A stretch of 64,000 bases of DNA from assembly GCA_037445735.1 (NCBI GenBank), contig JBBIJY010000009.1:12974-76973 (forward strand), in the 5' to 3' direction. This document shows positions 14,439-63,222 of the stretch, piece after piece. How positions within the stretch are numbered: the first letter of the stretch is position 1; each line of letters begins with the position of its first letter. Origin of the DNA: Armatimonadota bacterium. Its GTDB lineage: Bacteria; Armatimonadota; Fimbriimonadia; Fimbriimonadales; GBS-DC. The position numbers were made by a program, and so were the translations under genes. The notes under the pieces are model-generated. The model was given only the letters and a program-made list of their open reading frames with translations. It was not told the origin of the DNA and did not search any database.

Positions 14439-15504
14439 CGTCGTTGAGCATCGCTTTCAGCTGCACGCCCAGCCCTGGCGCGTTCGAAGGCAGCACGCGC
14501 CCATCTATCAGCGACCCGCCTTCGAACGGGTCATTCAACAGGTTCAGGTGGCTGTCCAGATCAAGATGGTCGGCGAGTGGGGCAATCTGCGCCGCCGCGC
14601 TGATGGCAAGACTGCTGTCCGAGTAGCAGCCGTACATCACCTGCAAGCCGAGCGCACGCGCCGTATGCACCATCCGCACCGCCTCCGTGATACCCCCGCA
14701 CTTCATCAGCTTGATGTTGATGCCGTGAACGCGGTCGGCGAAGCGTGCCACATCGCGGCTGTCGAAGCAGCTTTCATCGATAAAGAGCGGGATGGGCGTG
14801 TGGCGATAGAGTTCGGGCAGGGCATCTTCCTCGCCGCGGCGGAGCGGTTGCTCCACATATTCCACCCCGCGCTCCGCCAGCCAGCGAACCATGCGCTGGG
14901 CGTCGGCGAGGCTCCAGCCGCCGTTCGCGTCCACTCGCAGCGCGACACGCTGGTTCAGGGTGCGCAGCTCGTCGCGAATGGCTTCCAGCATCGCCTGATC
15001 CGCTTCGATGCCGTCAGGGTTGCCCATCTTGATTTTGAGGGCGCGGGCGTGGGTAAGCTGGAGCCAGTCGCGCACGCGCTGGCGGGCGACTTCGGGCGGG
15101 TTGATGCCAATCGTCACGGAGGTGGGCACGATTCGCTCGCGTGCCAGCCCCATCAGCTGCCACAGGGGTAGCCCCGCGCGTTTGCCCAGCCAGTCGAGCA
15201 GCGCCATGTCGATGGCGGCGCGGGCAGCGGAGGGGAGTTCCATCTCGCGCAGGCGCATCTCCACCTGCTGGCGCTGCAAAGGGTGCAGGTCGGCGAGCTG
15301 TGCGCGTGCCTGCTCCATCGCCTGAAGCAGGCTTTCGGTCGGCTGGCGATGGTCACCAATCGAAAAGGGCGACGCCTCGCCCCAGCCCTCGATCTCGTCC
15401 GCCTGAATCCGCACCCACACATTGGTGGTCTGCGCGGTCGTGCCCCGACTGATGGTCAGCGGAAACCGCTTCTGCACTGTGAAGGTCGTGAACGCTATCT
15501 GCAT
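14431..15504 (-). CDS. Dipeptide epimerase (enolase superfamily, L-Ala-D/L-Glu epimerase-like)
   Basis: Motifs FPLTISRGT...VWVRI..DEIEGWGEA, LKIKMG, LRVDANGGW, EQP and DES.. are the MR/MLE fold metal-ligand pattern. It overlaps the downstream FAD gene by 8 nt, suggesting an operon. Confidence 0.8.
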   Translation of the reverse strand: MQIAFTTFTVQKRFPLTISRGTTAQTTNVWVRIQADEIEGWGEASPFSIGDHRQPTESLLQAMEQARAQLADLHPLQRQQVEMRLREMELPSAARAAIDMALLDWLGKRAGLPLWQLMGLARERIVPTSVTIGINPPEVARQRVRDWLQLTHARALKIKMGNPDGIEADQAMLEAIRDELRTLNQRVALRVDANGGWSLADAQRMVRWLAERGVEYVEQPLRRGEEDALPELYRHTPIPLFIDESCFDSRDVARFADRVHGINIKLMKCGGITEAVRMVHTARALGLQVMYGCYSDSSLAISAAAQIAPLADHLDLDSHLNLLNDPFEGGSLIDGRVLPSNAPGLGVQLKAMLNDDA

Positions 15505-17357: not shown

Positions 17358-19435
<2,078 letters not shown>

Positions 19436-32325: not shown

Positions 32326-32585
32326 CCCCTCACCCCAGCCCTCTCCCCCGCTGGGGGAGAGGGAGCATCCGAACCCCTCTCCCCCGCCTGCGGAGAGGGA
32401 GCATCCGAACCCCTCTCCCCCGCGTGCGGGGGAGAGGGTACGGGTGAGGGGGCTATATCCTGCACGCCTGCAAGAAACCCCTCACCCCAGCCCTCTCCCC
32501 AGAGGGAAAGCTAACCCCTCACCCCTACCCTCTCCCCTGTGGGGAGAGGGAGAAATAACTCCCTCACCCCAGAGGGGAGAGGGAG
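32326..32585. repeat. Array of six or more nested-palindromic repeat units between the mfd stop and xerD
   Basis: Successive CCCCTCACCCC..CCCTCTCCCC-loop-GGGGAGAGGG(..GGGTGAGGGG) units include a tandem duplication (GGAGAGGGAGCATCCGAACCCCTCTCCCCCGC x2). The array abuts the mfd stop codon at 32586. Confidence 0.9.
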
Positions 32586-35500
32586 TTATTCGCCTTTTTC
32601 CCCCGCCTGGAGCGATTGGAGCGCTGTCAGCACGGTCAGGAGCGTCTCCAGCGGCTGGGCGGTGAGAGGCAGGCTCATCTTTTCGGGGCGCGTGCGGATA
32701 AAGGCAAACTGCCGCTGCAACGCCGTCTGCCAGCGCGCTTTCAGCCGCCGTTCAGGCTTGAAATCAACTATCAGCCGATTGCCCTCTGCCTGCAGGCTGG
32801 CGGCGCCCACCGCATGCGCCAGAATGCGCACCTCCATTATGCGCAACAGGTTGCGCACGGTCGGCGGCAACTGCCCGTAGCGGTCGCGCAGCTCGCGCAC
32901 GAGGTCTTTCAGCTCCTCGCGTGTGCGGCTGCCCGCGATGCGCTTGTAGTAGCCCAGCCGTTGCGCCACATCGGGGATGTAGTCGGCGGGGATGTAGGCG
33001 TCCACTGGCAGCTGGGCAGGCGGCAGCTCCTCCTGCAGGGGCGTATCCAGCGACCAGTGCGTCTCCCCGTTGCGCAGGTGGCGGATGGCGTCGCGCAACA
33101 TTGCCTGATAGAGTTCGAAGCCGACCATACGCATCGCGCCATGCTGTTCCTCACCCAGCAGGTTGCCCGCGCCGCGGATTTCGAGATCGCGCATCGCCAG
33201 CGCGAAGCCCGAACCCAGGTGGGAGAACTCCCTGAGCGCCTGCAGACGCTCCTCTGCCTTCTCGCTGAGCTTGCCCGCTTTGAACAGGAAATAGGCGTAC
33301 GCCTGGCGGTCGCTGCGCCCGACGCGCCCGCGCAACTGATAGAGCTGCGCCAGCCCGAACCGCTCCGCGCCCTCCACAATCAGCGTGTTCACATTCGGCA
33401 TATCCAGCCCGTTCTCGATAATCGTCGTGCTGACCAGCACATCGTAGCGGTGCTGATAGAAGTCCAGCACCGTCGCCTCCATTCGGGCGGCAGGCATCTG
33501 CCCGTGCGCGACCGCGATTCGGGCGCCGGGCACCAGTCGCTGGAGCCGCTCCGCCACATGCTGGATGCCCTGCACGCGCGGCACCACATAGAACACCTGC
33601 CCGTCGCGCTGGAGTTCACGCAGAATCGCCTCGCGCACTGTCCACTCCGTGTAGGGCAGAACATAGGTGCGGATAGGGAGCCGCCCCGGCGGCGGGTCGG
33701 TGATGAGGCTCATATCGCGGATCTCGGTGAGCGCCATATAGAGCGTGCGCGGGATGGGCGTCGCGCTCATCGTCAGCACATCGACCGCGCCACGCAACTG
33801 CTTGAACCGCTCCTTCTGCATCACGCCGAACCGCTGCTCCTCATCGATAATCACCAGCCCCAGATTGTGAAACTGCACATCTTTAGAGAGCAGGCGGTGC
33901 GTGCCGATGACCATATCGACGGCGCCCGTCTTCAGCCCGTGCAGGATGCGCCGCTGCTCGGCAGGCGTGATGAGCCGGCTCAACAGCGCAACCTGGATGC
34001 CGAACGGTTCGAACCGCTCGGTGAAGGTCTGCCAGTGTTGATACGCCAGCACGGTGGTGGGGCACAGCAGGGCGACCTGCCGACCCGACATGATGGCTTT
34101 GAAGGCGGCTCGCAGGGCGACCTCCGTTTTGCCGAAGCCCACATCGCCCACCAGCAGCCGATCCATAGGATGGGACGATTCCAGATCGCGCTTAACCTCC
34201 TGAATCGCCTGCAGCTGGCTGGGCGTTTCGAGGTATGGGAAGCCCGCCTCCATCTCCTGCTGCCAGGGTGTGTCGGGGTCGCAGGGCGGGCGGGTCGCCT
34301 TCTCGCGCAGGGCATAGAGGCGCACCAGCTCCTGCGCCACCTCCTTCGCCCTGCGGCGTGCCTGCGCCACGCGGCGCGTCCACAGCGCACTGTTGAGCCG
34401 ATGGATTTCGGGCGGCTTCTCATCGGGCGCAATATATTTCTGGATGCGGTCTAACTGGTCTGTCGGCACATAGATGCGGTCGGGGTGCGCGTATTCAATC
34501 AGCAGGTAATCGCGCCTGACCCCATCGCGCTCCAGCGTGGTCAGTCCGCGAAAGATGCCGATGCCGTGATAGAGATGTACCACATAGTCGCCGGGCTGGA
34601 GGTCCATAATGGAGGTGATGGGCACGCCCTCGTTGAATCGGCGGGGGGGCAGGCGCAGGCGATTGCGCTCGAACAGCTCCGCGTCGGTGATGAGCGCGAA
34701 CCGCTGGCTGTCCCACACGAAGCCGCCGCCCAGATTGCCCCGCCAGAGCAGCAGCGGGCGCGACGCCGCATCGGTTTGGACTGCGGAAGCAGGGCTTCCG
34801 CACTCCATATCGGCGTCCGCGAAGGGTAGCTCCGCCTGGCGCAGGGCATGCTTCACCTGATTGGGGCGGTCGGTCGCGATAACAATCTGGTAGCCTGCTT
34901 CGTGCCAGCGGCGCAGGCAGTTCCAGAGGTCAGGCAGCCGCCCGCGTGTCGTCTCCAGCGAGCGTGTGCCAATCGGAACACCCCCCTCACCACTTAGCAC
35001 CAGCGTGCGCGCATGCGAATCGAGCTTCTGAATCGGCTCCAGATAGGCGTCCGCCTGGAGCGGGATAATATCGCCGCGCGATGCACGCGATTCCAGCGCC
35101 TGCTGGAGGTCGTCCATCAGCCGCTCGTATGCCATCTGCAGGCGGAGCGGCTCCTCCAGAATCAGCACTGCATCGGCGGGCAGGTAGTCCAGCAGGCAGG
35201 CGCGTTCCGCCACCAGCCACGGCAGATAGAGTTCCAGTCGGTCAAACGGCGCGCCCTGCGACAGGGGATGCAGGTCCGCCTCCAGATTTTCGCGCAGAAC
35301 GGCTTGCAGCGCCTTCGGCTGGAGCGCGATCCGGGTTTCCCATTCGGCGCGGATGCGTTCGGCAAGCTCCGGATTGCCCATCGGCACCTCGCGGGCGGGC
35401 GGGATGCGCACCACGCGCAGGCTGGCGACCGAGCGCTGCGTGGCGGGGTCAAAACGGCGGAGGCTGACAATCTCGTCGCCGAAGAACTCGATGCGCACAG

Positions 35501-36254
35501 GCGCGTTCGCACCCATCGGGAACACATCCACAATTCCGCCCCGCCGCGCGAACTGACCTGGCAACCGCACTGGTTCCTGATGCTCATAACCGCTCACCAT
35601 CAGCTGCTGGATGAGCGCGTCAGGGGAAATGAATGGCTGGGGCGTCCCGCCCCGCAATGCCCCCTCACCCGTACCCTCTCCCCCGCTGGGGGAGAGGGGT
35701 TCAGTTGCTCCCTCTCCCCTCTGGGGAGAGGGCTGGGGTGAGGGGTTTCCTGCAAGCCTGCGCCCCACAGCCCCCTCACCCGTACCCTCTCCCCCGCTGG
35801 GGGAGAGGGGTTCGGACGCTTCCTCGCCATCCTCAACGGTGGCGAGGGCTAACAGCAATTGTTCAAACATCGCGGGGGGCATCGTGCGTTGCAGGGCGGC
35901 GGCAAGCGGAGCAATCACGATGACCGATTCGCCCCGATAGAGCGCCCGCAGCGCGCGCACCCGCTCATGCAGAACCTCCAGCTCCACTCCCGTCGGCTCC
36001 ATCACGGGCGTCAACCCTGCTGGCACACGCACCAGCCGCGATTCAGGGACGCCGAGCCGCAGCAGGATCGCCAGCCACTGCTCGGCGCGCTCCAGCGAAG
36101 GGGTCAGAATCAGCGCAGGGGCTTGCTGGTCAGCCATCAGCGCTGCTGTCAGCACAGGCGCCGACTCCGAACACACCTCGCGCCACACCAGCGGACGTCC
36201 CCCATCCCAGTCAGGCAATCCACCCCGCAACGCCTGTAGCCAGACGGGCAACAT
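32586..36254 (-). CDS. mfd: Transcription-repair coupling factor
   Basis: 1222 aa. It has an RNAP-interaction/CarD-like domain ([21 protein letters not shown]) and SF2 translocase motifs ([39 protein letters not shown]). Two repeat-derived insertions are carried in frame. Confidence 0.95.
34777..34805. repeat. 29-nt palindrome, copy 2 (inside mfd CDS)
   Basis: GGACTGCGGAAGCagGGCTTCCGCACTCC has one mismatch relative to 5157..5185. The shared flanks (T upstream, A.ATC downstream) extend the match to about 36 nt. Confidence 0.8.
35660..35810. repeat. Nested-palindromic repeat cluster (3 units) inside the mfd CDS
   Basis: Two copies of CCCCCTCACCCGTACCCTCTCCCCCgctGGGGGAGAGGG flank CCCTCTCCCCtctGGGGAGAGGGCTGGGGTGAGGGG. 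On the minus strand this translates as ...[15 protein letters not shown]...[14 protein letters not shown]...[15 protein letters not shown].... Confidence 0.9.
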
Positions 36255-36981: not shown

Positions 36982-37110
36982 CCCCTCACCCGTACCCTCG
37001 CCCCCGCTGGGGGAGAGAGAGAGTTATTAGCCCCTCTCCCCCGCCTGCGGGGGAGAGGGTATGGGTGAGGGGGCTTCACACAGACGGATATGATGCCAGC
37101 GATTTTTCGG
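36982..37110. repeat. Nested-palindromic repeat element next to tRNA-Glu, sharing an extended right flank with the element at 49997..50168
   Basis: The core is CCCCTCACCCGTACCCTCGCCCCCgctGGGGGAGAG...CCCCTCTCCCCCgcctgcGGGGGAGAGGGTATGGGTGAGGGGG. It is followed by CTTCACACAGACGGATATGATGCCAGCGATTTTTCGG; compare 50124-50160. Confidence 0.85.
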
Positions 37111-42415: not shown

Positions 42416-42518
42416 TTCAGACGGAAAAAAAAACCCGAATCGGGACTAAAGCCCCTTTTCCATCGCCAATTTTGGGGTATACTTTAGGTGCAGGTTCATT
42501 ACCTGCAAAGGAGGCTTA

Positions 42519-45500
42519 ATGAACAACCATATGATTCACCCGCTGCCTGGCAGCTGGGGAGCGAAGTTGCTTCTGGCAAGCTGTGTGTTCGTGATGCTGG
42601 CGAACGCTGCCCCAGAGGGAACCTGCTCTTCTAATGCTTGCGTGTTGCCTGCGACCATGCAGGCGCTGGAGCAGCAGATGCGTGAGGCGTATCAGGCGCG
42701 CAAAAGCTGCAAACCCGAACCCCCGATCGAAGTTCGGCTCGAACTGGCACAGTCGCCTGTGCGGAGTCAGCCCGTGCAGGTGGTCTTCTCCGTGTTGCCG
42801 TTTGAGTTCCTGCACAACGCCGAGATCAGCTGGGATGTATCGGAGGGCATCAGCGTGCTGAGCCGCCCCCAGCCCCTTCAGAACCTGCAGATCGACACCA
42901 AGGGCGTGTCCCAGTATCGGCTAACGGTGCAGTTCAACCGTGCGGGCAAGTACGAGATTGCGGCATCGGTGGTGGAGCGTGGCAACGGCTTCACGATGGG
43001 TCGGCGCGTGCATCTCTATTTCGATGTGCGTCCCGACGGCACGATTGAGGTGAGCCGATTGCCCTTCTGGGAGCCGCTTAAGGAGCCGCCCGCAGCGCAG
43101 GAGGTTCCTCCATCCGAACGGATTACGCCGCCTGCCCCCGATTCGCTGGCGCATCTGGGCATCCCACCTGCCCCCCAATCCGAACCCGTGAACGACGACG
43201 AGACCGTTTCGCCTCAGGGTCCCACGGGCACCGCGCGCGTGCGCGGCTACTTCTACTATCGCCACCGCGATGGAACCCTGCATGGCGCGTACGGCGCCCT
43301 CGTGCAAATCTGGGACGACGACAGCTGGTCGGGTGATGACCTGCTGGCGGAAGCCGTCTGCGGGAGCGACGGCTTCTTTGAAACGCCCGACTTCGACAAC
43401 GGCAACGATGGCGACCCGTTCGATGACGCCTCACAGGAGCCGTATGTGCGCTGGTACGCCCGCAACGGGCGCGTGAATGTGGTGCATTACACGGGCGGAC
43501 ATAACTTCCAGGTGAACGGACCCTCAAGCACCGACCTGCCCGATGGCGTGTGGGATATTGGCGGCTGGTTCATCGATACCGATGGCCCCGGCAACTATCC
43601 CGATGATGGCTGGGAAGCCGCCTACGAGATCTGCGACGCGCTCAGTCGCGCCTGGGCAAGCTACTACTACGGGCTGGGCTATGACCTCGCGCTCATCAAC
43701 TGCCGCTGGCAGGAGGGCGGCTCCGATGGCGCCTACTATGAGGGCGGTTCCCAGCGCATCACCCTCCGCGATGGCGACCAGCAGGACGACTCGGTCATCT
43801 TCCACGAATACGGGCACCATGTGATGCAGGTGGTCAAGGGCGGTTTCCCGCCCGGTTCTGGCGGCGCTCATAGCTGGTTCGGCTGCTACAACGGCGGACT
43901 CGCCTGGAGCGAAGGCTGGGCAACCTACTCCGGTCAAAGCTCGCTGGGCGGTACCACCTACTGCGACACACCCGGCGTGGGTGATTCGGCGAACTTCTGC
44001 GTGAATGTGGAGACGACCACAGGCAACTGCTTCGACGGCACCGTTGGCACGACAGGTGAAGCCTCCGTGCTGTCCTCGCTCTGGGATGTGTATGACAATC
44101 TGGCGGGCGACCCCCATCCGCGGGACCGCCTCGCGCTGGGACGCAGCGCCATCTGGGACACCTTCGTCAACGGCGGAACCCTCAACCACATGCTGGACTT
44201 TGTCAATGCATGGTTCGCGCGCGGGTACGACTACGACTCCGCCTTTCGCGATATTATGCGCGACCACCGAATCCTGGCGGAAATCAGCAACTTCGTGACG
44301 GTGGAGATCGACCACACCTATCGGGGTGACCTGGTGGTGGATGTGGGCGTGGGCAATCCCGACGCGCCGCTTTATTCCAAGCGTATCTGGAACCGCGCAG
44401 GCGGCAGTGCGGACAACCTCTACATTCAGGAGAGCGTGGCGGACGCGCCCAGCTTCTACCTGAACAACCCCGACGAGAGCGTGGTCTGGTTCTGCAAAGT
44501 GTACGATGCTGCGGGCCTGGATCAGGGCACCCTGCGCCGATTCAGCCTGACCACTAACAACACTTATGTATCGGGCAATGTGCCCCAACCTGTAACGGAC
44601 TTCAACGCGACCTATGCCTTCTACCCGACGCGCACCGCACGCCACGCCCTGATTGGGCTGGATCACACATACAGGGGCGACCTCGTGGTGACGATAGGGG
44701 CTGGCGATCCGAGCAGTCCGCTCTGGAGCCGCGTGGTGGCAAACCGCACGGGCGGCTCGCTGGACAACATGTGGTGCCAGGTGGACCTTTCGAGCGCCGC
44801 CGCGTTCCTACCCCCTGACCCGCGCACCTGCGACATGCGCGGCTGGTGGGTCAAAGTGGAGGACCGGGCAGGCGCCGATGAGGGCACGCTGCACACCTTC
44901 CTCATCAATAACAACGGCAGTATCACCGACACGAACGATGCGGATCAGCCGATTGTGGACTTCAGCACCAGCTACCTGCGTCAGTGGGGCGACAGCGTCT
45001 GGACCGCAATTACACCCGTTACGGGCGCTTACGGACAGACCGTGCCGCTGAGCGTGCGTATGAATGCTGTCAATCTGGTCAGCTGGATCTGCAACCGCGC
45101 CATCGCCTTCTCCGTGGCGGGCAACCCTGCGGGCAGCGCGAACACCGATGTCAACGGCTGGGCAAGCGTCAACTACACCATCCCTGAAAGCCTTGCCGTC
45201 AGCACGCATAATGTGACCTTCGCCTTCGCGGGCGACTTCTTCTTCAGCGCGCGTACCGCGACCGTCGCCGCGCTGACCGTGCAGAAGGCGAACACCAGCC
45301 TCAGTGTGGTGAACCGCTCCGGCTTCATCGGGCAGACGATTCAACTGCAGGCGACGCTCCGCCGCACCACCGATAACGCGCCGCTGACAGGCAGAAGCGT
45401 GCAGTTCCGCATCGATGGCAACCCCGTCGGCAGCGCAAACACCAACGCCTCTGGCATCGCCACGCTCAACTACACCATCCCGAATATCGCCTGCGACAAC

Positions 45501-45743
45501 CACACCATTCAGGCGGTCTTTGCGGGCGACAGCTGGTACAACGCCGGCTCAGGCGACGCCACGCTGACCGTTCGCCTGCAGGGCGATGTGAACGGCGATC
45601 ACGTGGTGGATGACGCCGACCTGCTCGCGGTGCTGTTTGCGTTCGGTCAGACAGGGAGCCGCCCCGAAGATGTGAACAGCGACGGCGTGGTGGATGACGC
45701 CGACCTGCTGATTGTGCTGTTCAACTTCGGGCAGAGCTGCTAA
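42519..45743 (+). CDS. Large secreted multidomain protein: HExxH metalloprotease-like core, two P-domain-like modules, Ig-like repeats, C-terminal dockerin-like double repeat
   Basis: Signal peptide (...MLANA|AP). The motif is VIFHEYGHHVMQ. Two repeats read (I/L)DHTYRGDLVV..G.G.P..PL.S....NR.GGS.DN. Two repeats read ..(F)...GNP.GSANT...G.A..NYTIP. The tail is GDVNGDHVVDDADLLAVLFAFGQ...DVNSDGVVDDADLLIVLFNFGQSC. Confidence 0.6.
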   Translation: MNNHMIHPLPGSWGAKLLLASCVFVMLANAAPEGTCSSNACVLPATMQALEQQMREAYQARKSCKPEPPIEVRLELAQSPVRSQPVQVVFSVLPFEFLHNAEISWDVSEGISVLSRPQPLQNLQIDTKGVSQYRLTVQFNRAGKYEIAASVVERGNGFTMGRRVHLYFDVRPDGTIEVSRLPFWEPLKEPPAAQEVPPSERITPPAPDSLAHLGIPPAPQSEPVNDDETVSPQGPTGTARVRGYFYYRHRDGTLHGAYGALVQIWDDDSWSGDDLLAEAVCGSDGFFETPDFDNGNDGDPFDDASQEPYVRWYARNGRVNVVHYTGGHNFQVNGPSSTDLPDGVWDIGGWFIDTDGPGNYPDDGWEAAYEICDALSRAWASYYYGLGYDLALINCRWQEGGSDGAYYEGGSQRITLRDGDQQDDSVIFHEYGHHVMQVVKGGFPPGSGGAHSWFGCYNGGLAWSEGWATYSGQSSLGGTTYCDTPGVGDSANFCVNVETTTGNCFDGTVGTTGEASVLSSLWDVYDNLAGDPHPRDRLALGRSAIWDTFVNGGTLNHMLDFVNAWFARGYDYDSAFRDIMRDHRILAEISNFVTVEIDHTYRGDLVVDVGVGNPDAPLYSKRIWNRAGGSADNLYIQESVADAPSFYLNNPDESVVWFCKVYDAAGLDQGTLRRFSLTTNNTYVSGNVPQPVTDFNATYAFYPTRTARHALIGLDHTYRGDLVVTIGAGDPSSPLWSRVVANRTGGSLDNMWCQVDLSSAAAFLPPDPRTCDMRGWWVKVEDRAGADEGTLHTFLINNNGSITDTNDADQPIVDFSTSYLRQWGDSVWTAITPVTGAYGQTVPLSVRMNAVNLVSWICNRAIAFSVAGNPAGSANTDVNGWASVNYTIPESLAVSTHNVTFAFAGDFFFSARTATVAALTVQKANTSLSVVNRSGFIGQTIQLQATLRRTTDNAPLTGRSVQFRIDGNPVGSANTNASGIATLNYTIPNIACDNHTIQAVFAGDSWYNAGSGDATLTVRLQGDVNGDHVVDDADLLAVLFAFGQTGSRPEDVNSDGVVDDADLLIVLFNFGQSC

Positions 45744-49340: not shown

Positions 49341-49368
49341 CCCCCTCCCGAAAGCCTTCGGGAGGGGG
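49341..49368. terminator. GC-rich hairpin between convergent genes
   Basis: CCCCCTCCCGAA-agcc-TTCGGGAGGGGG is a 12-bp perfect stem. TTTT lies on its 5' side on the plus strand. Confidence 0.4.
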
Positions 49369-49380
49369 TGCATACCACGC

Positions 49381-49896
49381 TTAGCGTCCACCAGAGCGAG
49401 AGAACACAGCGATATCGCCGCGTTTCACCTCGCCTGAGTAGGTGAACACGGTGTTGCCATCCTCGTCGGTGAAAGTTACCTCCAGCGTGTCGGGGTCGCC
49501 ACTGCCATCGCGCGAGCGATTATCGGCGACGCTGACCTGCACCGTGCCACGAACGCGCTCGAACCCCGTGCGCGAACGCACGGTCAGCACCGCCTGACCG
49601 CTGAAACTCGCCGTGCGATTGTCAAGGTCAACCGTCAGGTCCTCGAGGCGGAACATCAGCACCGAAACGAGCTGGGTATCCTGGCGTGTGGTCAGGCTGA
49701 ACCAGCCCCCTTGCCAGGAGCGCGCACCGAAGGTGAACTCAACCACGGTGAACGAGAAGAAGGCATTCGGTTGATCCGAGTCGGGGGCGCCAGCCGAGCC
49801 AGCGCCCGATGCGCCTTTCACGCTAAAGGTCTGTGCCAGCGCCAATGCGCTCGTCAGCACCATCAACGCGCCAAACCACACTGCTCTTCGCATCAT
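49381..49896 (-). CDS. Secreted hypothetical protein
   Basis: 171 aa with signal peptide MMRRAVWFGALMVLTSALALA|Q. The mature part is beta-rich and has no recognisable motif. Confidence 0.4.
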   Translation of the reverse strand: MMRRAVWFGALMVLTSALALAQTFSVKGASGAGSAGAPDSDQPNAFFSFTVVEFTFGARSWQGGWFSLTTRQDTQLVSVLMFRLEDLTVDLDNRTASFSGQAVLTVRSRTGFERVRGTVQVSVADNRSRDGSGDPDTLEVTFTDEDGNTVFTYSGEVKRGDIAVFSRSGGR

Positions 49897-49996
49897 CCAT
49901 CCCTCCTTCGTCAGTGCTGGCTACCTCAGCGATCCATCTCGCTCATGGTAGCCTCTTTTATTATACCCTATCGAGGACAAAGAAGCCAAGGAGTGA

Positions 49997-50168
49997 GGAG
50001 GGTGTTCGAAAAATCCAACCAGCGGCAAGGATGCCCCTCACCCCTACCCCCTCCCCAGAGGGGAGAGGGAGAAAATAAACCACTCTCCCCCGCAGGCGGG
50101 GGAGAGTGTACGGGTGAGGGGGCTTCACACAGGCAGATATGATGTCCGCGAATTTTCGAACACCCTCC
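49997..50168. mobile_element. MITE-like 172-bp element: nested-palindromic repeat core bounded by 16-bp perfect terminal inverted repeats
   Basis: The left end is GGAGGGTGTTCGAAAA (49997-50012) and the right end is TTTTCGAACACCCTCC (50153-50168). The interior holds CCCCTCACCCCTACCCCCTCCCCagaGGGGAGAGGG ... CTCTCCCCCgcaggcGGGGGAGAGTGTACGGGTGAGGGGG. There is no coding capacity. Confidence 0.55.
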
Positions 50169-50254
50169 GGGGTGAGGAAGCCACCTCTATATCCCTCTCA
50201 AGTGCGGAACAGCGGGTATAATGGGGCAGTCCAACCAGTGGAGGTGCATGCAAA

Positions 50255-51100
50255 GTGCAATGTCCGAACTGTCGGCAGCCGTTGCCAGAGAACGCGCAGT
50301 TCTGTCTGCGCTGCGGTCGCCCGCTCACAGCCACGCTGATGAGCAGCCCGCCCGTTAGCTCCAGCAGTAGTCGCGCGCTCCGGTGGCTCGCGCTCGCGCT
50401 GGGAGTGCTGGTGCTGCTGGGGGCTGTCGCCTTCATCGGCATCCACAGCGGACTGCTCACCCGGGCGCAGGTGAAAAAGCCCGCGGGTCCCAGCGTGCTG
50501 GAGGCGGAGGCGCCCAAGCCCCCAGCGCCCAGCGTGCTGCAAGCCGAAGCGCCCAAGCCGTCGGGTCCCAGCGTGCTGCAAACCGAGACGCCCCAGCCCA
50601 AACAGGCGCCCCAGCATGTGATCAACTGGCTCGAACACCTGCGCCGTATCGAAATGAAACGCCGCACAATGGAGCGCAACTTCAATCCCGCACTGGAGAT
50701 GCTTAAAGACGCACTGGCGCTCAAACTGGAACTGGACGAGGAGAAGCAACAGGAAAAAATGCAAAATCTGCAGCAGGGCTATCAGCGCTATCAGCAGGAT
50801 TGGGCAGGGCTGCTGCGCGAATATCGCTCCGTGCCGCCGCCCGCTGAGTGCCGCGTGTTAGCCGACACCTACGACGCCGCACTGAGCAGCTATGTTACCT
50901 TCATGCTCCAGATCGAAGACGCCATGCAGAAGCAGGACCTCAACCGCCTGATGAATATGCGTGGCACGGCTCAATCCGATGTGGATCAGAAGCTCATTAA
51001 TGCCGATGTGGAGCTGATGAAGGTGTGTGAGAGCTACGGCGTGCGCAAATATTTTGACATTCGCCCGTCGGGCGCCGTCGAAACACTGTTCGGGTTTTAG
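50255..51100 (+). CDS. Zinc-ribbon membrane protein with a Pro-rich tandem repeat
   Basis: The N-terminus is CPNCRQPLPENAQFCLRCG, followed by one TM helix (LRWLALALGVLVLLGAVAFIGI), a 3 x 13-aa repeat and an alpha-helical C-terminal domain. GTG start with GGAGG 10 nt upstream. Confidence 0.5.
   Translation: MQCPNCRQPLPENAQFCLRCGRPLTATLMSSPPVSSSSSRALRWLALALGVLVLLGAVAFIGIHSGLLTRAQVKKPAGPSVLEAEAPKPPAPSVLQAEAPKPSGPSVLQTETPQPKQAPQHVINWLEHLRRIEMKRRTMERNFNPALEMLKDALALKLELDEEKQQEKMQNLQQGYQRYQQDWAGLLREYRSVPPPAECRVLADTYDAALSSYVTFMLQIEDAMQKQDLNRLMNMRGTAQSDVDQKLINADVELMKVCESYGVRKYFDIRPSGAVETLFGF
50480..50596 (+). repeat. Tandem 39-nt (13-aa) repeat x3 inside the CDS
   Basis: The three units are PAGPSVLEAEAPK, PPAPSVLQAEAPK and PSGPSVLQTETPQ. 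Confidence 0.8.
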
Positions 51101-55039: not shown

Positions 55040-55207
55040 TCTCACCCGCAGTTTCTGAACTCCCTCTCCCCCGCAAGCGGGGGAGAGGGTACGGGTGAGG
55101 GGGCTTTTTATCCTGCCAGGCTGAGAAAACCCCCACCCCGACCCTCTCCTTAGCAGGGAGAAACTAAGCCCCTCTCCCCCAAAGGGGGAGAGGGTACGGG
55201 TGAGGGG
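55040..55207. repeat. Nested-palindromic repeat cluster upstream of the dcw promoter
   Basis: The first unit is CCCTCTCCCCCgcaagcGGGGGAGAGGGTACGGGTGAGGGGG, followed by the linker CTTTTTATCCTGCCAGGCTGAGAAAACCCCCACCCCGACCCTCTCC. A second unit, CCCCTCTCCCCCaaaGGGGGAGAGGGTACGGGTGAGGGG, follows. Confidence 0.9.
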
Positions 55208-55312
55208 CTTAAAAACCCCTCGCGGACACCACAAACCCCTTCTGTCAACCCCAACATATCGGAAATTCGGGGTGATTTCGCCCAAATCTGGGGGTTTGTG
55301 GGGCTTAACCCC

Positions 55313-57279: not shown

Positions 57280-59084
57280 AACAGCGGGGCACAGCGGTCG
57301 TGTATACAGCGGGCGAGGCGCGCCAGCGTCAGCAGGAGTCGCAGCGCCTCGCGGTCGCGGGCGGGCTGATGGCGCTGGGCGGCGTGCTGATTGTCGGGCG
57401 GCTCTTCACCCTGCAGGTGCTGCAGGCGCAGGAGATGCGTGAGGCAGCCCGCATCCGTCGTGAGCGCACGCGCCCACTGCTCGCCCGACGCGGCGCGATC
57501 CTTGACCGCTATGGACGATCCCTCGCCCGCACCACTTTCCATTATCACCTGGCGATCGACCCGCGGAGCGTGCGCGATCCTGCCGCGACCGCTCGCTGGC
57601 TTGCGCACGGGCTGCAACTCGACGCGAACCGCCTGCAGGCTGCCATCGAAGGGGCACAGGCGAGCAATGCCCGCTACCTGCGCATCGCCACCTTCGTGCC
57701 GCAGGCGCGTGCCGAACCGCTCCTGCAAGCCTATCGGCGCACACCCACCCGCGAGCGGCTCGCCATTCTCACGAGAGAGGTTGTGCCCTCGCGTGAGCTG
57801 CCCGAAGGGCGGCTCGCTGCGCAGGTCGTGGGGCTGACCACCCTCGAAGAGAACCGTGAACAGGGCAATATGCTCAAGCCCCTTTGTGGGCTGGAGCTTT
57901 CGATGGACGCGCGACTGAACGGCAAAAACGGTCAGGAAGAGGGTGAGGTCGCGCCGAACGGCGCCATCATTCCCGAAACTCTGCGCCGGCGGGTGCCGCC
58001 CGTCGATGGCGAACCCGTGCGACTCACGCTCGATATCGAAATTCAACAGGCTGTGGAGGATGCGCTGGACGACCTGATGCGCCGACATCAGCCTGCAGGC
58101 GCGCTGGCGATGGTGCTGAATGTGCGCACGGGCGAACTCCTCGCGCTCGCCAACCGCCCCACCTTTGACCCCATCACGCGCAAAGGGCTGGAGCGTAGCG
58201 CCGAACCGCTGCGCAACCGCGCCATCACCTTCCTGTACGAGCCTGGCTCCACGCTCAAGCCAGTCGTGCTGGCTGCCGCGCTCGACGCGGGCATCGTGCG
58301 CCCAACAGACCGATTCTACTGCCGCAACCGTTTTGTGGTCAGTGGCAAACGCATCAATTGCGTGGTGCATGGGCGCTCGCACGGCTTGCAAACCGTTGAG
58401 GCGGTGCTGAAGAACTCCTGCAATGTTGCCTGTGCGCAGATTGGCTTGCGAATGGGGCTGGAGCGGTTGTACAGGGGGCTACAGCGGTTCCACCTGCTGG
58501 AGCCGACGGGCATCGAGCTGCCTTCGGAGTGGACGGGCTGGACGGAGCCACCCCAGCGCGTGCGATATGGGCGTACCCTGCGCGAGGCGAACCTCGCCTT
58601 CGGGCAGGGCGTGTTCGTGACGCCCCTCGCGCTTGCCGCCGCCTACGCCGCGCTCGCCAACGACGGACGCTGGATCCAGCCACACCTGCTCTACGGACGC
58701 ACCGACCTGAAAACCACACAGGTGGTTCAGCCCGCAATCGCGCGGCTCATCCTGCACGCGCTGGTGCAGGCAGTGGAGGAGGGCACGGGCAGGCAGGCAC
58801 AGATACCCGGCTACTGGATCGCGGGCAAAACGGGCACAGCGCAGAAAGCTATCCCCGAACGCGGCTATGTGCGCGGCAAATATATCGCCTCCTTTATCGG
58901 CATCGTGCCCGCCGATGAGCCGCGCGCCGTCATCATGGTGCTTGCAGATGAACCGCGCAACGGCTACTACGGTGGCGAGGTCGCAGCGCCCACCTTCCGC
59001 CGAATCGCCCAGTTCCTGCTCTGGTACTGGAAAATCCCGCCCAGCAGAGAACTTAAAAGCAGAGCGAGGTCTAACCGGGTATGA
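57276..59084 (+). CDS. ftsI: Peptidoglycan D,D-transpeptidase (class B PBP, FtsI type)
   Basis: There is a TM anchor and a dimerisation domain. The catalytic motifs are STLKP (SxxK), SCN (SxN) and KTGTA. GTG start overlaps the ftsL 3' end. Confidence 0.9.
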   Translation: MKQRGTAVVYTAGEARQRQQESQRLAVAGGLMALGGVLIVGRLFTLQVLQAQEMREAARIRRERTRPLLARRGAILDRYGRSLARTTFHYHLAIDPRSVRDPAATARWLAHGLQLDANRLQAAIEGAQASNARYLRIATFVPQARAEPLLQAYRRTPTRERLAILTREVVPSRELPEGRLAAQVVGLTTLEENREQGNMLKPLCGLELSMDARLNGKNGQEEGEVAPNGAIIPETLRRRVPPVDGEPVRLTLDIEIQQAVEDALDDLMRRHQPAGALAMVLNVRTGELLALANRPTFDPITRKGLERSAEPLRNRAITFLYEPGSTLKPVVLAAALDAGIVRPTDRFYCRNRFVVSGKRINCVVHGRSHGLQTVEAVLKNSCNVACAQIGLRMGLERLYRGLQRFHLLEPTGIELPSEWTGWTEPPQRVRYGRTLREANLAFGQGVFVTPLALAAAYAALANDGRWIQPHLLYGRTDLKTTQVVQPAIARLILHALVQAVEEGTGRQAQIPGYWIAGKTGTAQKAIPERGYVRGKYIASFIGIVPADEPRAVIMVLADEPRNGYYGGEVAAPTFRRIAQFLLWYWKIPPSRELKSRARSNRV

Positions 59085-60664
59085 GACGCTTGAGCGAACT
59101 GTTGCAGGAGGCTGGCGTGGCGCATCGGCTGTATGGCGACAGCTGGATTCGCGCCATCCAGGTCGATTCGCGTCAGGTGCAGGCGGGCGATCTGTTCGTT
59201 GCGCTCAAAGGCACGCGCCATGACGGGCATCAGTTCCTGCAACAGGCGATTGAGCGGGGCGCCGCCGCGCTGCTGGTGAGCAACGCGAGCGCCATCCCGC
59301 CCAACGCACCCGCATGGGCACAGGTGGACGACACACGCGACGCACTGTGGCGGATTGCCCGGCAATTTTACGGGGACGCGAGCCGCCAGCTGAGGGTGGT
59401 GGGCGTCACGGGCACCAACGGCAAGACCACCACCACGCACCTGATGCGCGCGATTTTCGAGGCGGCAGGTCTGCCCTGTGCGCTGATTGGCACGCTGGGC
59501 GCCGCGCTACCCCACCTACTGGAAGATGCCCCCTCACCCGTACCCTCTCCCCAAAAGGGGAAGAGGGGTATAGAGAATCCCCTCTCCCACGCTGTGGGGG
59601 AGGGGGCAGGGGGCGAGGGACCTGCCCTGACCACGCCGGAGCCGTTTGTGCTGCAGGCGCTGTTGTGCCGTGCGCTGGAGCGGGGCGCCCGCGCCGTCGC
59701 GATGGAGGTCTCCTCGCACGCGCTCGACCAGCGCCGCGCCGATGGCATCCGCTTCGACGCAGGCATCTTCACCAACCTCACGCCTGAACATCTGGACTAT
59801 CACCCCACGATGGAGGCTTACGCCGCCGCCAAACTGCGTCTGTTCACCGAGCTGGCACGCCAGTCGGGCAAGCCGTTCCGCGCCGTTATCAATCTCGATG
59901 CGGAATGGGGCGGGTGGTTCGCCGAGCGTGCCGAAGGCGAGCTGTGGACTTACGGCACACAGCCGAACGCGCGCGTGCGAGCCACCGAGGTGCAGATTCA
60001 CACCGATGGCATCCAGTTCATCGTGCAGGCGGATGCCGGCAAGCCGTTGCGCTTCCCTGCCCGCATTCGGCTCAGTGCACCGTACAACCTGCAGAATGCG
60101 CTGGGCGCGATTGCCGCCGCGCTCAGCCTCGAACTGCCGATTGAAGCCATTCAGGTGGGTCTGCTGCGTGTGGAGCGGGTGCCCGGGCGCTTCGAGCGCG
60201 TGCCCATCGATGCCCCCTTCACCGTGATTGTGGACTACGCGCACACGCCCGACGCCCTCCGACGCCTGCTGGAGGCGGCGCGGGCGCTGGAACCCACACG
60301 CCTCACCATCCTGTTCGGCTGCGGGGGCGACCGCGACCCGACCAAACGCCCCGTGATGGGCGCCATCGCCACTGAACTCGCTGACCGCGTGATCCTGACC
60401 TCCGATAACCCGCGCACCGAACCACCCGAACGCATCCTTGAGCAAATAGTGGCAGGCATCCCGCCCGAACGACGCGAGAAAGTGGTGGCGATTGAACCCG
60501 ATCGGCGCACCGCAATCGCGATTGCTCTGGAGCAGGCGATCGCGGGCGAGCTGATCCTGCTAACAGGCAAGGGACACGAGAACTATCAGATTATCGGCAC
60601 GACAAAGTTTCCGTTCAGCGATCGTGAGACCGTGCTGGAGTTGATGGGAGCGAAGCGAGCATGA
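59081..60664 (+). CDS. murE: UDP-N-acetylmuramoyl-L-alanyl-D-glutamate--2,6-diaminopimelate ligase
   Basis: Motifs GVTGTNGKTTT, MEVSSHAL, DYAHTPDAL and the DNPR motif (meso-DAP type). It carries an in-frame repeat-derived insertion of about 30 aa between IGTLG and TTPEP. Confidence 0.95.
   Translation: MRRLSELLQEAGVAHRLYGDSWIRAIQVDSRQVQAGDLFVALKGTRHDGHQFLQQAIERGAAALLVSNASAIPPNAPAWAQVDDTRDALWRIARQFYGDASRQLRVVGVTGTNGKTTTTHLMRAIFEAAGLPCALIGTLGAALPHLLEDAPSPVPSPQKGKRGIENPLSHAVGEGAGGEGPALTTPEPFVLQALLCRALERGARAVAMEVSSHALDQRRADGIRFDAGIFTNLTPEHLDYHPTMEAYAAAKLRLFTELARQSGKPFRAVINLDAEWGGWFAERAEGELWTYGTQPNARVRATEVQIHTDGIQFIVQADAGKPLRFPARIRLSAPYNLQNALGAIAAALSLELPIEAIQVGLLRVERVPGRFERVPIDAPFTVIVDYAHTPDALRRLLEAARALEPTRLTILFGCGGDRDPTKRPVMGAIATELADRVILTSDNPRTEPPERILEQIVAGIPPERREKVVAIEPDRRTAIAIALEQAIAGELILLTGKGHENYQIIGTTKFPFSDRETVLELMGAKRA
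59529..59619. repeat. Degenerate nested-palindromic repeat inside the murE CDS
   Basis: The sequence is CCCCCTCACCCGTACCCTCTCCCCaaaaGGGGAAGAGGGG...CCCCTCTCCCacgctgtGGGGGAGGGGG.... It translates as [31 protein letters not shown]. Confidence 0.8.
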
Positions 60665-62061
60665 GAGCGATGACCTTACGCGAGGTTGCGCAGGCGTTGC
60701 ATGCGAGCCTGCCTGTGCTGCTGACGGGCGAGGAGCGCGTGCAGGGCGTCACGACCGACAGTCGCACGGTGCAGGCGGGCGACCTGTTCTTTGCGCTGCG
60801 GGGCGAACGCACCGATGGACACATGTACCTGCAGGAGGTGTTCGCGAAGGGCGCGGTCGCTGCGGTGGTGGAGTATATCCCGATTGGCGCGGAAGGGCTG
60901 CCCCTGCTGCGCGTGCCCTCCACCCTGCAGGCGCTGGGCACGCTGGCGCACCACTACCGCATGCAGATGCCCGATCTGGTGGTGATCGGCATCACAGGCA
61001 GCACGGGCAAGACCACCACGCGCGCGATGACCGCCGCCGCGCTTGAAGCGGGCTATCCTGGCGCCATCCAGAGCAGCCCGGGCAACTTCAACACCGAGAT
61101 TGGCGTGCCGCTCACCATCTTCGGGCTGGAGGCGCACCATCGGCTGCTGGTGCAGGAGATGGCGATGCGCGGGCGCGGGCAAATCGCCTACCTTGCCGGG
61201 ATCGCCCGCCCGCAAATCGGCGTCATCACTCAAATCGGCTGGTCACACATCGAGCTGCTGGGCAGCCGTCAGGCGATTGCGGAGGCGAAGGGCGAGCTGC
61301 TGCTGGCATTGCCACCCGACGGGTGGGCAATCCTGCCCCGCGACGACAGGTTCTATGAGTTCCTGCGTTCGCTGGCGCCCTGCCCCGTGCTGACCTTCGG
61401 ACGCCATCCCGAATCGGACGCCTGCCTGCTCGAAACGCGCCTTGCGCCCGACAGCACCACAGGCGTCATCCAGATTCGGATACCCGCCACCGGCGAGCGA
61501 GCGATTGTCGAACTCACCCTGCCCTATCTGGGCGAGCATCTGCTGATGAACGCGACGGTCGCCCTGCTGGTCGCTGCCGTGCTGGGTGTCGATCTGGAGC
61601 GGGCTGCCCGCGCGCTGGCGCAGGTGCAACTGCCCGAGATGCGCATGAACATTCAGCCCCAGCCCGGCGGCTGGACGCTCATCAACGACGCCTACAACGC
61701 GAACCCCGATTCGATGCGCGCGGCGCTGCAGGTGCTGCTCTATCAGGCGCCTGCTAAACGCCGGATCGCCATTCTGGGCGATATGAAGGAGCTGGGCGCC
61801 TACAGTATGCGCCTGCACTGGCAACTGGGGCGCTGGCTTGCCACTCAGCCGCTCGATTACCTGATTCTGGTCGGCTACGATGTGCTATGGACGGCGGCTG
61901 CCGCCAGGGAGGGCGGGTTCCCCCCTCAGCGCGTGCTGCACTTCGAGAACCCGCTGAGCGCAGGGGAGTGGCTCTGGCGCAATGTGCAAAAGGGCGACTG
62001 GGTACTGCTCAAAGGCTCCCGCGCCATCGGACTGGAACGCATCATGGGCGTGAAGGCGTAA
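60661..62061 (+). CDS. murF: UDP-N-acetylmuramoyl-tripeptide--D-alanyl-D-alanine ligase
   Basis: Motifs ITGSTGKTTT, DAYNANPDSM and GDMKELG. Its start overlaps the murE stop (ATGA). Confidence 0.95.
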   Translation: MRAMTLREVAQALHASLPVLLTGEERVQGVTTDSRTVQAGDLFFALRGERTDGHMYLQEVFAKGAVAAVVEYIPIGAEGLPLLRVPSTLQALGTLAHHYRMQMPDLVVIGITGSTGKTTTRAMTAAALEAGYPGAIQSSPGNFNTEIGVPLTIFGLEAHHRLLVQEMAMRGRGQIAYLAGIARPQIGVITQIGWSHIELLGSRQAIAEAKGELLLALPPDGWAILPRDDRFYEFLRSLAPCPVLTFGRHPESDACLLETRLAPDSTTGVIQIRIPATGERAIVELTLPYLGEHLLMNATVALLVAAVLGVDLERAARALAQVQLPEMRMNIQPQPGGWTLINDAYNANPDSMRAALQVLLYQAPAKRRIAILGDMKELGAYSMRLHWQLGRWLATQPLDYLILVGYDVLWTAAAAREGGFPPQRVLHFENPLSAGEWLWRNVQKGDWVLLKGSRAIGLERIMGVKA

Positions 62062-62146
62062 TCAGCCTCCCTCTCCCCCTTTGGGGGAGAGGGTACGCAA
62101 TCAGCCTCCCTCTCCCCCAGAGGGGGAGAGGGTACGGGTGAGGGGG
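62061..62146. repeat. Two tandem nested-palindromic repeat units in the murF-mraY spacer
   Basis: The units are ATCAGCCTCCCTCTCCCCCtttGGGGGAGAGGGTACGCA and ATCAGCCTCCCTCTCCCCCagaGGGGGAGAGGGTACGGGTGAGGGGG. They start at the last base of the murF stop codon. Confidence 0.9.
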
Positions 62147-62160
62147 CAACATTAAGCAAG

Positions 62161-63222
62161 ATGATGATAGAGATGGTGATCGCGGCACTAACGGCGCTGG
62201 TAATGGGCAGGCCGATAATCGGTGCGCTGGCGCGACTGAACATTCGCCAGAGCATCTATTCCTACGCGCCTGAAAGCCATCGGGTGAAGGAAGGCACGCC
62301 CACGATGGGCGGGTTCATTATTCTGCTCGGCGTGGCGGTCGGGCTGCTCGCGTTCGCCTTTCTGCCCCATCCTGCACAACCAGTAGCTGGGGCATCCATG
62401 CCCCAGTCTATCCCCAGAGGTAGCCTGTACCTTGTGCCGTTGCTCACCTTCTTCGCCGCGGCGGGGCTGTTCGCCCTGCTGGGCTTCCTCGACGACTATC
62501 TGGTGCGCCGCTGGCTGGGGCGGCGCGGGCTGGAATGGAAAACGAAACTGCTGCTGCAGGCACTGATGGCGGCGGTCGCACTCTATGCAACAGCGAGCAT
62601 GCCAGCGCAGTTGCTGAGCGCCCCTCATGCCGATGGAGCAAACGCGCCTGCTCTTCCCTCCCCTGCTCTGCCCCTCTCCGTCTGGCTGCTGGCGCTGGTG
62701 TGGGTGGTCGGCTGGGTGAACGCTTTCAACCTGACAGATGGGCTGGACGGGCTGGCAGCGGGGCTGAGCGTGATTGCGTTCGGTATACTCGCCGCGCTCT
62801 GTCGCGACACGCTGAGCGTCATCACCGCGATGCTCTGGTGCGGCGCCGCGCTCGGCTACCTGTGGTGGAACCTTCATCCCGCGCATGTGTTCATGGGCGA
62901 CACCGGCTCGATGGCGCTCGGCGCAACCTTCGCGCTAATCACCTGGCGCGAACTGATGCTCGCTGGGAGCCTGTCGGGTGAATGGCTCCCGCGCGCCGCG
63001 CTGTTCGTGCTGATCGGGCTGATGTTCGCGATCGAAATCATCACCGTGATAATTCAGTTGAGCGCGGTGAAGGTGCTCAAGCGGCGCATCTTCCGCGCGA
63101 CGCCCATCCATCACCATTTTGAGCTGATGGGCTGGCAGGAGAGCCTGATTGTGGGTCGGTTCTGGATTGCAGGTGCGCTGACGGGACTGATGGCGTACGC
63201 GCTTTCGGGAGGGTTGCGATGA
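62161..63222 (+). CDS. mraY: Phospho-N-acetylmuramoyl-pentapeptide transferase
   Basis: Motifs KEGTPTMGG, NAFNLTDGLDGLA, HVFMGDTGSMALG and PIHHHFEL. Confidence 0.95.
   Translation: MMIEMVIAALTALVMGRPIIGALARLNIRQSIYSYAPESHRVKEGTPTMGGFIILLGVAVGLLAFAFLPHPAQPVAGASMPQSIPRGSLYLVPLLTFFAAAGLFALLGFLDDYLVRRWLGRRGLEWKTKLLLQALMAAVALYATASMPAQLLSAPHADGANAPALPSPALPLSVWLLALVWVVGWVNAFNLTDGLDGLAAGLSVIAFGILAALCRDTLSVITAMLWCGAALGYLWWNLHPAHVFMGDTGSMALGATFALITWRELMLAGSLSGEWLPRAALFVLIGLMFAIEIITVIIQLSAVKVLKRRIFRATPIHHHFELMGWQESLIVGRFWIAGALTGLMAYALSGGLR

Follow-up and report, generated by a model that had tools for sequence, protein, structure and literature searches.

We report the analysis of a palindromic repeat that lies in frame within murE, the gene for UDP-MurNAc-L-Ala-D-Glu:meso-DAP ligase, in 64,000 nucleotides of contig JBBIJY010000009.1 from an Armatimonadota bacterium; this whole stretch is referred to below as the window. 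The gene is part of the dcw cluster, with a penicillin-binding protein (PBP) gene of the ftsI type upstream and murF, mraY and murD downstream, and the order PBP-murE-murF is the same in every related locus that we fetched (annotated synteny in L081-L084). The source names of the homologs point to Armatimonadota/Fimbriimonadales, near "bacterium HR15", and from the provenance of that bacterium we take the host lineage to be a likely thermophilic one. An earlier note on this DNA had proposed that MurE carries an insertion of some 30 amino acids derived from a repeat, at 59529-59619. The proposal is borne out by an exact 25-nt family terminus, by the full architecture of the element and by a gap relative to canonical MurE, and its coordinates were right to within one base.

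The repeat insert in murE

The gene and the features within it that concern us here are the following.

59081-60664, plus strand: murE coding sequence, from the list of open reading frames (ORFs), 527 amino acids plus stop
59501-59527, plus strand: native N-terminal part of the loop (AALPHLLED), which aligns with ATLPH... of relatives
59528-59620, plus strand: in-frame repeat element of 93 nt, exactly codons 150-180, 31 residues
59528-59542, plus strand: left terminal inverted repeat, GCCCCCTCACCC plus GTA, translated A-P-S-P-V
59543-59568, plus strand: hairpin 1, CCCTCTCCCC / AAAA / GGGGAAGAGGGG, with one stem mismatch relative to the family (from sequence and RNA fold)
59569-59578, plus strand: central spacer, TATAGAGAAT; the TAG within it is out of frame
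59579-59605, plus strand: hairpin 2, CCCCTCTCCCAC / GCT / GTGGGGGAGGGG, with GCT as its loop
59606-59620, plus strand: degenerate right terminus, GCAGGGGGCGAGGGA, matching the family form (C/T)(T/A)(C/G)GGGTGAGGGG and translated G-E-G
59630-59638, plus strand: T184-T185-P186 motif, invariant in 88 aligned MurE sequences, three residues 3' of the insert and before helix 188-200

The insert thus has the architecture of a full element: a terminal inverted repeat, a first hairpin, a spacer, a second hairpin and a degenerate right terminus. The 22-nt core of the family, CCCTCACCCGTACCCTCTCCCC, is matched exactly at 59531-59552, and the whole 25-nt family terminus, GCCCCCTCACCCGTACCCTCTCCCC, is exact at 59528-59552. 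The left terminal inverted repeat with its GTA (59528-59542) recurs unchanged in the copies that end at 7640, 19374, 32451, 55102 and 62145 and in those that start at 35659 and 35770. When up to three mismatches are allowed, the core has 19 matches in the window, distributed over nine places as dimers and arrays, whereas 100 shuffles that preserved the dinucleotides gave 0 matches.

Compared over its whole length with five other full, standard-length elements, the murE copy is 66-77% identical to them, and they are 70-84% identical among themselves; it is only mildly more diverged than the other copies, and its divergence is concentrated at the right end. A heavily degenerate right end was considered and set aside, this end being less so than it first appears when it is compared with a second terminus subtype, ...GGGCTGGGGTGAGGGG. 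Since the right terminus is read in murE as G-E-G, the TGA of the family terminus would be out of frame. The RNA of the insert is predicted to fold with -59.2 kcal/mol (z = -4.0 relative to shuffles); for three intergenic copies of the window and one copy in mfd the corresponding values are -64 to -79 kcal/mol (z = -6 to -9.5).

Loop length and predicted structure of MurE

Between the GTLG and TTPE motifs, the MurE of the window has 43 residues, so that the long loop previously described is real although the count of about 41 given for it was low. Alignments made with phmmer to the chains of solved MurE structures are interrupted from query residue 144 to 180, where those chains have 6-15 residues, and in a 28-sequence alignment (the window protein and 27 relatives) the gap again falls at the insert, the same loop comprising 12-19 amino acids in the outgroups and 16 in the closest clade with a short loop. 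Without the insert the loop would be 12 residues long, as in the shortest relatives. Canonical MurE can be aligned over this region only by opening a gap.

Outside the loop the protein has the domains and motifs of its family. Its Pfam domains are Mur_ligase (E = 4e-12), Mur_ligase_M (1e-46) and Mur_ligase_C (8e-35), and among solved structures it is MurE enzymes that match it best, at phmmer E-values of 1e-83 to 1e-100. The invariant columns are kept: the P-loop TGTNGKTT (T110-T117), T184-T185-P186, E209, H213, K251 and D442-N443-P444-R445 (DNPR). The roles of these motifs, which include the glutamate and histidine of MEVSSH, the carbamylated lysine and the DNPR sequence for meso-DAP, are well established for Mur ligases; the threonines equivalent to T184-T185 presumably contact UDP-MurNAc in E. 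coli MurE.

The AlphaFold2 model, for which 88 sequences were aligned, has a mean predicted local distance difference test (pLDDT) score of 92.3 and a predicted template modelling (TM) score of 0.91. Residues 148-179 are the sole segment with a pLDDT below 50, and the model places this segment between strand 140-142 and helix 188-200. Superposition of the model on the solved MurE structures of E. coli, M. tuberculosis, T. maritima and S. aureus (1e8c, 2wtz, 4bub and 4c13) gives Foldseek target TM-scores of 0.87-0.91. The alignment and structural model for which the earlier note had called therefore place the insert in a loop, 148-179, that is predicted to be disordered within a canonical fold. 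As judged by sequence and model the window protein is a canonical MurE, and ligase activity in the presence of the insert is a prediction.

Constraint on the insert

A sister genome, GCA_037444405.1, was reached through P0122, a member of the MurE cluster, and shares 94-96% DNA identity with the window over 15 kb of synteny (locus L083). Its murE carries the same insert at the same codon, with a length of 96 nt, exactly one codon more, and the two inserts are separated by 14 substitutions and the 3-nt indel; neither contains a stop. The polymorphism of presence and absence for which close genomes were to be compared is not seen between the window and L083, the insert being present in both. In the L083 copy both hairpins are perfect, the loop of hairpin 1 is 7 nt long (TGCTTGC) and the predicted fold has -69.6 kcal/mol (z = -6.1). 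The window copy has fewer stem pairs, and most of the differences between the two genomes lie in the loops and spacer rather than in the stems. Given these perfect hairpins, the exact left 25 nt in the window and the overlapping ranges of identity reported above, the contrast first drawn between a degenerate copy in murE and near-perfect intergenic copies was overstated.

Rates of substitution were estimated by the method of Nei and Gojobori from this single pair of genomes, with the following result.

Insert (31 codons): dN 0.154, dS 0.207, omega 0.74
Native loop (12 codons): 6 nonsynonymous and 0 synonymous differences, omega not defined
Rest of murE (484 codons): dN 0.017, dS 0.111, omega 0.15

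Compared with the rest of murE, the ratio of nonsynonymous to synonymous differences is raised in the whole loop (Fisher test, p = 2e-4) and in the insert alone (p = 0.013). The contrasts in omega and in the Fisher tests therefore indicate that constraint on the peptide is weak, and selection looks to be keeping only the frame and the stop-free state of the insert, with the peptide itself nearly unconstrained. The idea of an insertion evolving under coding constraint consequently survives for the frame and the absence of stops and fails at the level of the amino acids, where an omega of 0.74 stands against 0.15.

Two pairs of orthologous hairpin loops are reverse complements of one another: GCT in the window murE (59591-59593) with AGC in L083 (10510-10512), and GCAAGC in the window (55074-55079) with GCTTGC in L083 (about 6098-6103). 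These look like flips mediated by the inverted-repeat stems. The number of intergenic units also differs between the two genomes. About 105 nt of additional repeat sequence are found in the window at about 55106-55210; the murF-mraY spacer has an extra 39-nt unit at 62057-62095, that is, two units in the window and one in L083; and an 850-nt segment with one element, 49343-50191, is present in the window only. Since the divergence of the two genomes, then, the family has continued to change, and the murE copy has kept its place.

In-frame copies in other genes

The behaviour seen in murE is repeated in other genes. The mfd gene of the window, an ORF of 1222 amino acids on the minus strand (about 32586-36254) with the Pfam domains TRCF, UvrB_inter, CarD_TRCF_RID and helicase, contains repeats that add some 60-66 residues between the N-terminal and UvrB-interaction domains; about 80 residues separate the collinear blocks, compared with 14 in E. 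coli Mfd, and its copies share the reading frame of murE. In L083 there are half-elements in frame in murD (14930-14985, ...ALSPACGGEGMGMGEGA...) and in a murC-ddl fusion (18750-18791, ...QPLSSSRSEGTGEGV...), and in L082 (9544-9656) and L084 (7193-7305) two units form a C-terminal extension of murD of about 45 amino acids. The fusion of murC and ddl, of 800-815 amino acids, was observed in two loci, L083 (17904-20351) and L108 (17875-20277).

Two further loci, from other Fimbriimonadales genomes, carry in-frame hairpin repeats in other loops of MurE. In L109, whose MurE (P0019) is 64% identical to that of the window, a related CCCTCACCCC...GGGATGAGGG element lies at about 2760-2860 in a different loop, after LFTEL. 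A different hairpin family, with GGTTCCCC...GGGGAACC units, is found in L108, a 2.6-Mb contig (P0048), in frame in yet another MurE loop (10868-11007) and in murD (14694-14880).

The in-frame copies of the murE family, in murE, mfd, murD and murC-ddl, translate as PSPxPSP...GEGxGEG. At all 13 coding right ends the T of GGGTGAGGG falls on the third position of a codon, which gives E-G-x-G-E-G (the GGT-GAG-GGG frame); the number becomes 11 if the unverified copy in ORF 7530-9200 and the murD half-unit of L083, which lacks the TGA, are left out. One of the three frames of the right end holds the TGA, and the second, G-E-R-V-R-V-R-G, is open and yet never used. The bias has a p of about 0.01 if at least 6-7 independent events are assumed, and it suggests that only the translation rich in Gly, Glu, Pro and Ser is tolerated.

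Relatives and the age of the insertion

Among relatives at 75-78% protein identity the MurE loop has 16 amino acids in four proteins, 20-32 in six and 68-90 in two. A search with 10-mers of the repeat found no copy in the loci of five of the relatives with loops of 16-32 amino acids (L081, L085-L088), and the loop DNA of these five scores no better against the elements than codon-shuffled controls do, with no remnant detected. It follows that the same extra loop is not shared by relatives without the repeat, and the scores lend no support to the view that one ancient insertion, made at the root of the 75-78% clade, has since decayed. A scan of contigs with the MurE protein returned only relatives of at most 43% identity, swamped by universal Mur motifs, and was of no use for presence or absence. 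Low-complexity lengthening was seen elsewhere: the GTLG-TTPE loop of L087 (P0003) is extended by a (PSD)n tandem repeat with a 9-nt unit, and P0006, P0012 and P0013 have SD(K/R/E) runs in a second MurE loop (alignment columns 430-480).

In the lineage of P0007 and P0010 (L084 and L082) this family likewise occupies the MurE loop that holds the insert in the window, but begins two codons before it. There the left half of the copy is truncated and the right end perfect, the spacer and the hairpin loops are different, and behind the copy the loop holds further nested material that includes a GTAG-tagged palindrome, GTAGGGGCGAC...GTCGCCCCTAC. The loop of L082 (P0010, about 4550-4620) is 66 nt, or 22 codons, longer than that of L084 (P0007), the additional stretch being bounded by a 10-nt direct repeat, CCCCAGAGGG; the difference is a recent in-frame indel and is consistent with slippage or deletion within the loop derived from the repeat.

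In a neighbour-joining tree P0007 and P0010 are nested among repeat-free lineages and the lineage of the window branches first. Because of this nesting, and because the intermediates hold no remnants, we lean towards two independent insertions into a permissive loop in preference to one ancient insertion with multiple clean losses. By sequence comparison the murE insertion predates the split of the window and L083 genomes, at a dS of about 0.11. The age once attributed to it is accordingly correct as far as that split, and does not extend to the sampled relatives at 75-78% identity, in which the insertion was not found except in the one lineage that probably acquired its own copy.

Copies of the family in the window

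The unit of the family is about 40 nt long and consists of a G+C-rich hairpin, CCCTCTCCCCC / loop / GGGGGAGAGGG, and a tail, which on one strand is GTA or CAG and then CCCTCACCCC. Two opposed units make up elements of 88-96 nt with the terminal inverted repeats GCCCCCTCACCC...GGGTGAGGGGGC, and units are also present singly and in arrays. The copies in the window other than that in murE are listed here.

7558-7738, plus strand: family copies, possibly coding, about 180 nt, in frame in ORF 7530-9200 after the signal-peptide-like start MLTALLLAIAL
19333-19374, no strand assigned: half-element, intergenic (core matches)
32327-32586, no strand assigned: cluster of units, intergenic, downstream of mfd (core matches)
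35662-35843, minus strand: two copies within mfd, with uninterrupted translation through the repeats
36983-37072, no strand assigned: full element, intergenic, adjoining a tRNA gene (core matches, RNA fold)
50035-50121, no strand assigned: full element, intergenic, inside the 850-nt segment (49343-50191) missing from the sister genome
55061-55207, no strand assigned: intergenic copies upstream of mraZ (core matches)
62065-62145, no strand assigned: intergenic copies between murF and mraY, two 39-nt units

ORF 7530-9200 has no Pfam match, and its body after the repeats looks conserved; it may represent a third coding insertion or else a miscalled start codon. Searched against Rfam at the gathering threshold, the window yielded only a tRNA, and the repeat matched no family. 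By eye, the flanks of the inspected copies showed no direct repeats of the kind left by target-site duplication. No gene for a transposase or a REP-associated tyrosine transposase (RAYT) was identified, the ORFs of the window not having been scanned systematically. The 850-nt segment that surrounds 50035-50121 was considered as the carrier of a transposase and rejected: its ORF 49381-49896, of 171 amino acids, resembles a secreted protein, having a signal peptide, and does not look like a transposase, although Pfam was not applied to it.

The copies at 37026-37109 and 50075-50158 share 86% identity that extends about 35 nt past the element (GCTTCACACAG.C.GATATGATG...), which suggests a longer common unit or a duplicated flank. 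Outside the genomes considered so far, an exact 25-nt right end, GGGGAGAGGGTACGGGTGAGGGGGC, occurs once each in 19 metagenome contigs (L089-L107) with a G+C content of 48-71%, and in most of them it is preceded by its hairpin partner. As these contigs differ so widely in G+C content, the hairpin-plus-tail type is not confined to one lineage.

In the murF-mraY spacer the repeat units create the ORFs 61926-62255 (minus strand) and 61887-62141 (plus strand), of 84-109 amino acids, which are likely to be spurious and could be miscalled as genes. Repetition of other kinds was also noted. Within ORF 50255-51100, which encodes a membrane-anchored, zinc-ribbon protein, three tandem 39-nt repeats at 50477-50599 encode KP.GPSVL(Q/E)AEAP. 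Positions 45120-45735 of ORF 42450-45743 (1098 amino acids) encode internal protein repeats, among them a pair reading DVNGD..VVDDADLL.VLF.FGQ that looks dockerin-like or EF-hand-like.

Comparison with known repeat families

The family shares features with repetitive extragenic palindromes (REPs), as described by Di Nocera et al. (2013, PMC3733652): both are short, G+C-rich hairpins in high copy, often in opposed pairs and mostly intergenic, and the units of about 40 nt agree with a definition of REPs as palindromes of 20-40 bp found in high copy as inverted dimers or clusters. Some REPs of the GTAG and CGTC superfamilies are inserted in frame in genes, many of them replication and repair genes, in several species; the intragenic dimers encode 20-30 amino acids and the clusters 43-82, for which those authors proposed neutrality in loops or linkers (PMC3733652). 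The corresponding figures here are 31 amino acids for the dimer-like element in MurE and about 60 for the cluster in the repair gene mfd, a target that agrees with the published occurrence in repair genes. The targets here also include Mur ligases, and neither these nor mfd are listed in the text supplements of that study (PMC3733652). Unlike REPs, the units in the window have neither a GTAG nor a CGTC tag, their tail being CCCCTCACCC plus GTA, CAG or CAA, so that it reads ...GGGTACGGGTGAGGGG, ...GGGCTGGGGTGAGGGG or ...GGGTTGGGGTGAGGG; because the tag is absent, the family is not, by its sequence, a member of the GTAG/CGTC superfamilies. The host, too, differs from the published REP hosts in belonging to the Armatimonadota/Fimbriimonadales.

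A second parallel is offered by the Rickettsia palindromic elements (RPEs). In the genes of R. conorii 44 insertions of them are known, and almost half of these lie within genomic ORFs, where they could form in-frame fusions (reviewed in PMC10969869). RPEs are likewise palindromic, selfish repeats that lie in frame in many unrelated housekeeping genes and encode a conserved peptide judged to be compatible with the fold of the host protein (PMC10969869). They measure about 150 bp and inhabit obligate intracellular alphaproteobacteria, whereas the elements described here are about 90 bp, very G+C-rich and found in a free-living lineage, with the GEGxGEG frame bias and the recurrent hits in one loop as features of their own. 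The family is best taken as working and persisting in the manner of RPEs, and not as a member of them.

[quoted passage not shown] In Coxiella, MITEs have given rise to fusions and C-terminal extensions (PMC5896051), and the extension of enhC by QMITE2 is paralleled by that of murD in L082 and L084. In contrast to MITEs, no target-site duplications are visible at the inspected copies, there is no known parent insertion sequence, and units also occur singly and in arrays, in the manner of REPs and BIMEs.

Discussion

The reading that we hold to be highly probable is that the insert is a tolerated passenger and not a functional module, a copy of the repeat that has become a disordered, near-neutral loop of 31 residues in MurE. 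We infer that a non-autonomous hairpin repeat of about 90 nt, REP- or MITE-like in nature, entered the DNA of a solvent-exposed loop in the central domain of MurE, where the ORF would have been preserved by a length of 93 nt, which is a multiple of three, and by a stop-free frame. The element would be translated as a flexible, hydrophilic excursion rich in Pro, Ser, Gly and Glu, with no effect on the fold or on the catalytic motifs. Selection would afterwards maintain the frame and the absence of stops while the peptide drifts almost neutrally, and the copy would persist because it does little harm, because precise excision is rare and because, in an essential gene, an imprecise one would be lethal.

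Several points weigh against this account. Translation of the insert and enzyme activity with the insert in place are predictions from the sequence, and the estimate of dN/dS rests on 31 codons and one pair of genomes, with several of the differences lying in hairpin loops, where they may be single multi-base events. The better conservation of stems than of loops and spacer could reflect constraint at the level of the nucleic acid rather than pure neutrality, and the expansion of the same loop in several related lineages could hint at a benefit of a long loop. As to how the insertion came about, no target-site duplication is visible at the copies inspected, and no transposase was identified.

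That the peptide has been exapted, gaining a function in MurE as a flexible arm to Mur enzymes or the divisome, or as an adaptation to high temperature, and is retained for this reason, we regard as unlikely. The retention of the insert in both close genomes would fit such a function, as would the longer loop in most of the 75-78% clade, including the 68-90 amino acids of P0007 and P0010, but the loops of this clade are unrelated in sequence and length, being (PSD)n in one case, other sequences in others and absent in yet others, and 16 residues suffice in the closest clade with a short loop. The single reading frame used in all coding copies, which can be taken to imply selection on the peptide, is explained equally by the purging of harmful frames, and neither an omega of 0.74 in the insert, nor a native loop in which all 6 codon differences are nonsynonymous and none is synonymous, nor a pLDDT below 50 is what a functional peptide would lead one to expect. 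A role for the nucleic acid, in which the hairpins act in the dcw mRNA or DNA as a pause, an RNase barrier, a processing signal or a gyrase site and the peptide is a by-product, is in our judgement distinctly unlikely. It would account for an RNA fold far better than that of shuffles (z = -4.0 in the window, -6.1 in L083) and for the location of most differences between these genomes in loops and spacer, and REPs downstream of genes are believed to function as RNA elements (PMC3733652). However, stem pairs present in L083 have been lost from the window copy, whose predicted fold is weaker than that of the intergenic copies, the copies stand at unrelated positions in unrelated genes, and an intragenic hairpin would be unwound by ribosomes.

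It is very improbable that the insertion is not translated at all, whether as an assembly artefact, as part of a murE pseudogene, or through removal by splicing or ribosomal bypass. The genomes are derived from metagenomes and repeats are prone to misassembly, yet the insert is found at one and the same codon in two independent assemblies, whose copies differ by 14 substitutions, are both free of stops and have lengths, 93 and 96 nt, that are multiples of three. A pseudogene would be at odds with an intact ORF and the preservation of all the catalytic motifs, and excision or bypass was ruled out by the other intragenic copies, every one of which is likewise in frame and stop-free, as would be unnecessary if the element were removed.

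A more far-reaching and decidedly tentative proposal, which we think may hold but would not assume, is that the family is a selfish counterpart of the RPEs in free-living and probably thermophilic bacteria, systematically colonising the surface loops of essential enzymes of the cell wall and of repair (MurE, MurD, MurC-Ddl and Mfd), with only the benign PSP...GEG frame surviving, and hitting the same MurE loop independently. If true, this would imply that the family either prefers certain target sites or passes through a strong selective filter, and new protein loops would arise from it repeatedly.

For annotation, inserts of this type inflate protein lengths, seed spurious ORFs such as 61926-62255, and can mislead gene annotation and homology-based start calls. 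The MurE loop also offers a natural experiment on its remodelling by repeats, one lineage having it empty, several having it filled or nested, and one having it changed by 66 nt. An essential and highly conserved enzyme here tolerates a passenger of 31 residues only three residues upstream of an invariant motif, and the concept of selfish DNA inside proteins, already known from RPEs and from intragenic REPs in repair genes, is thereby extended to the Armatimonadota and to the Mur ligases.

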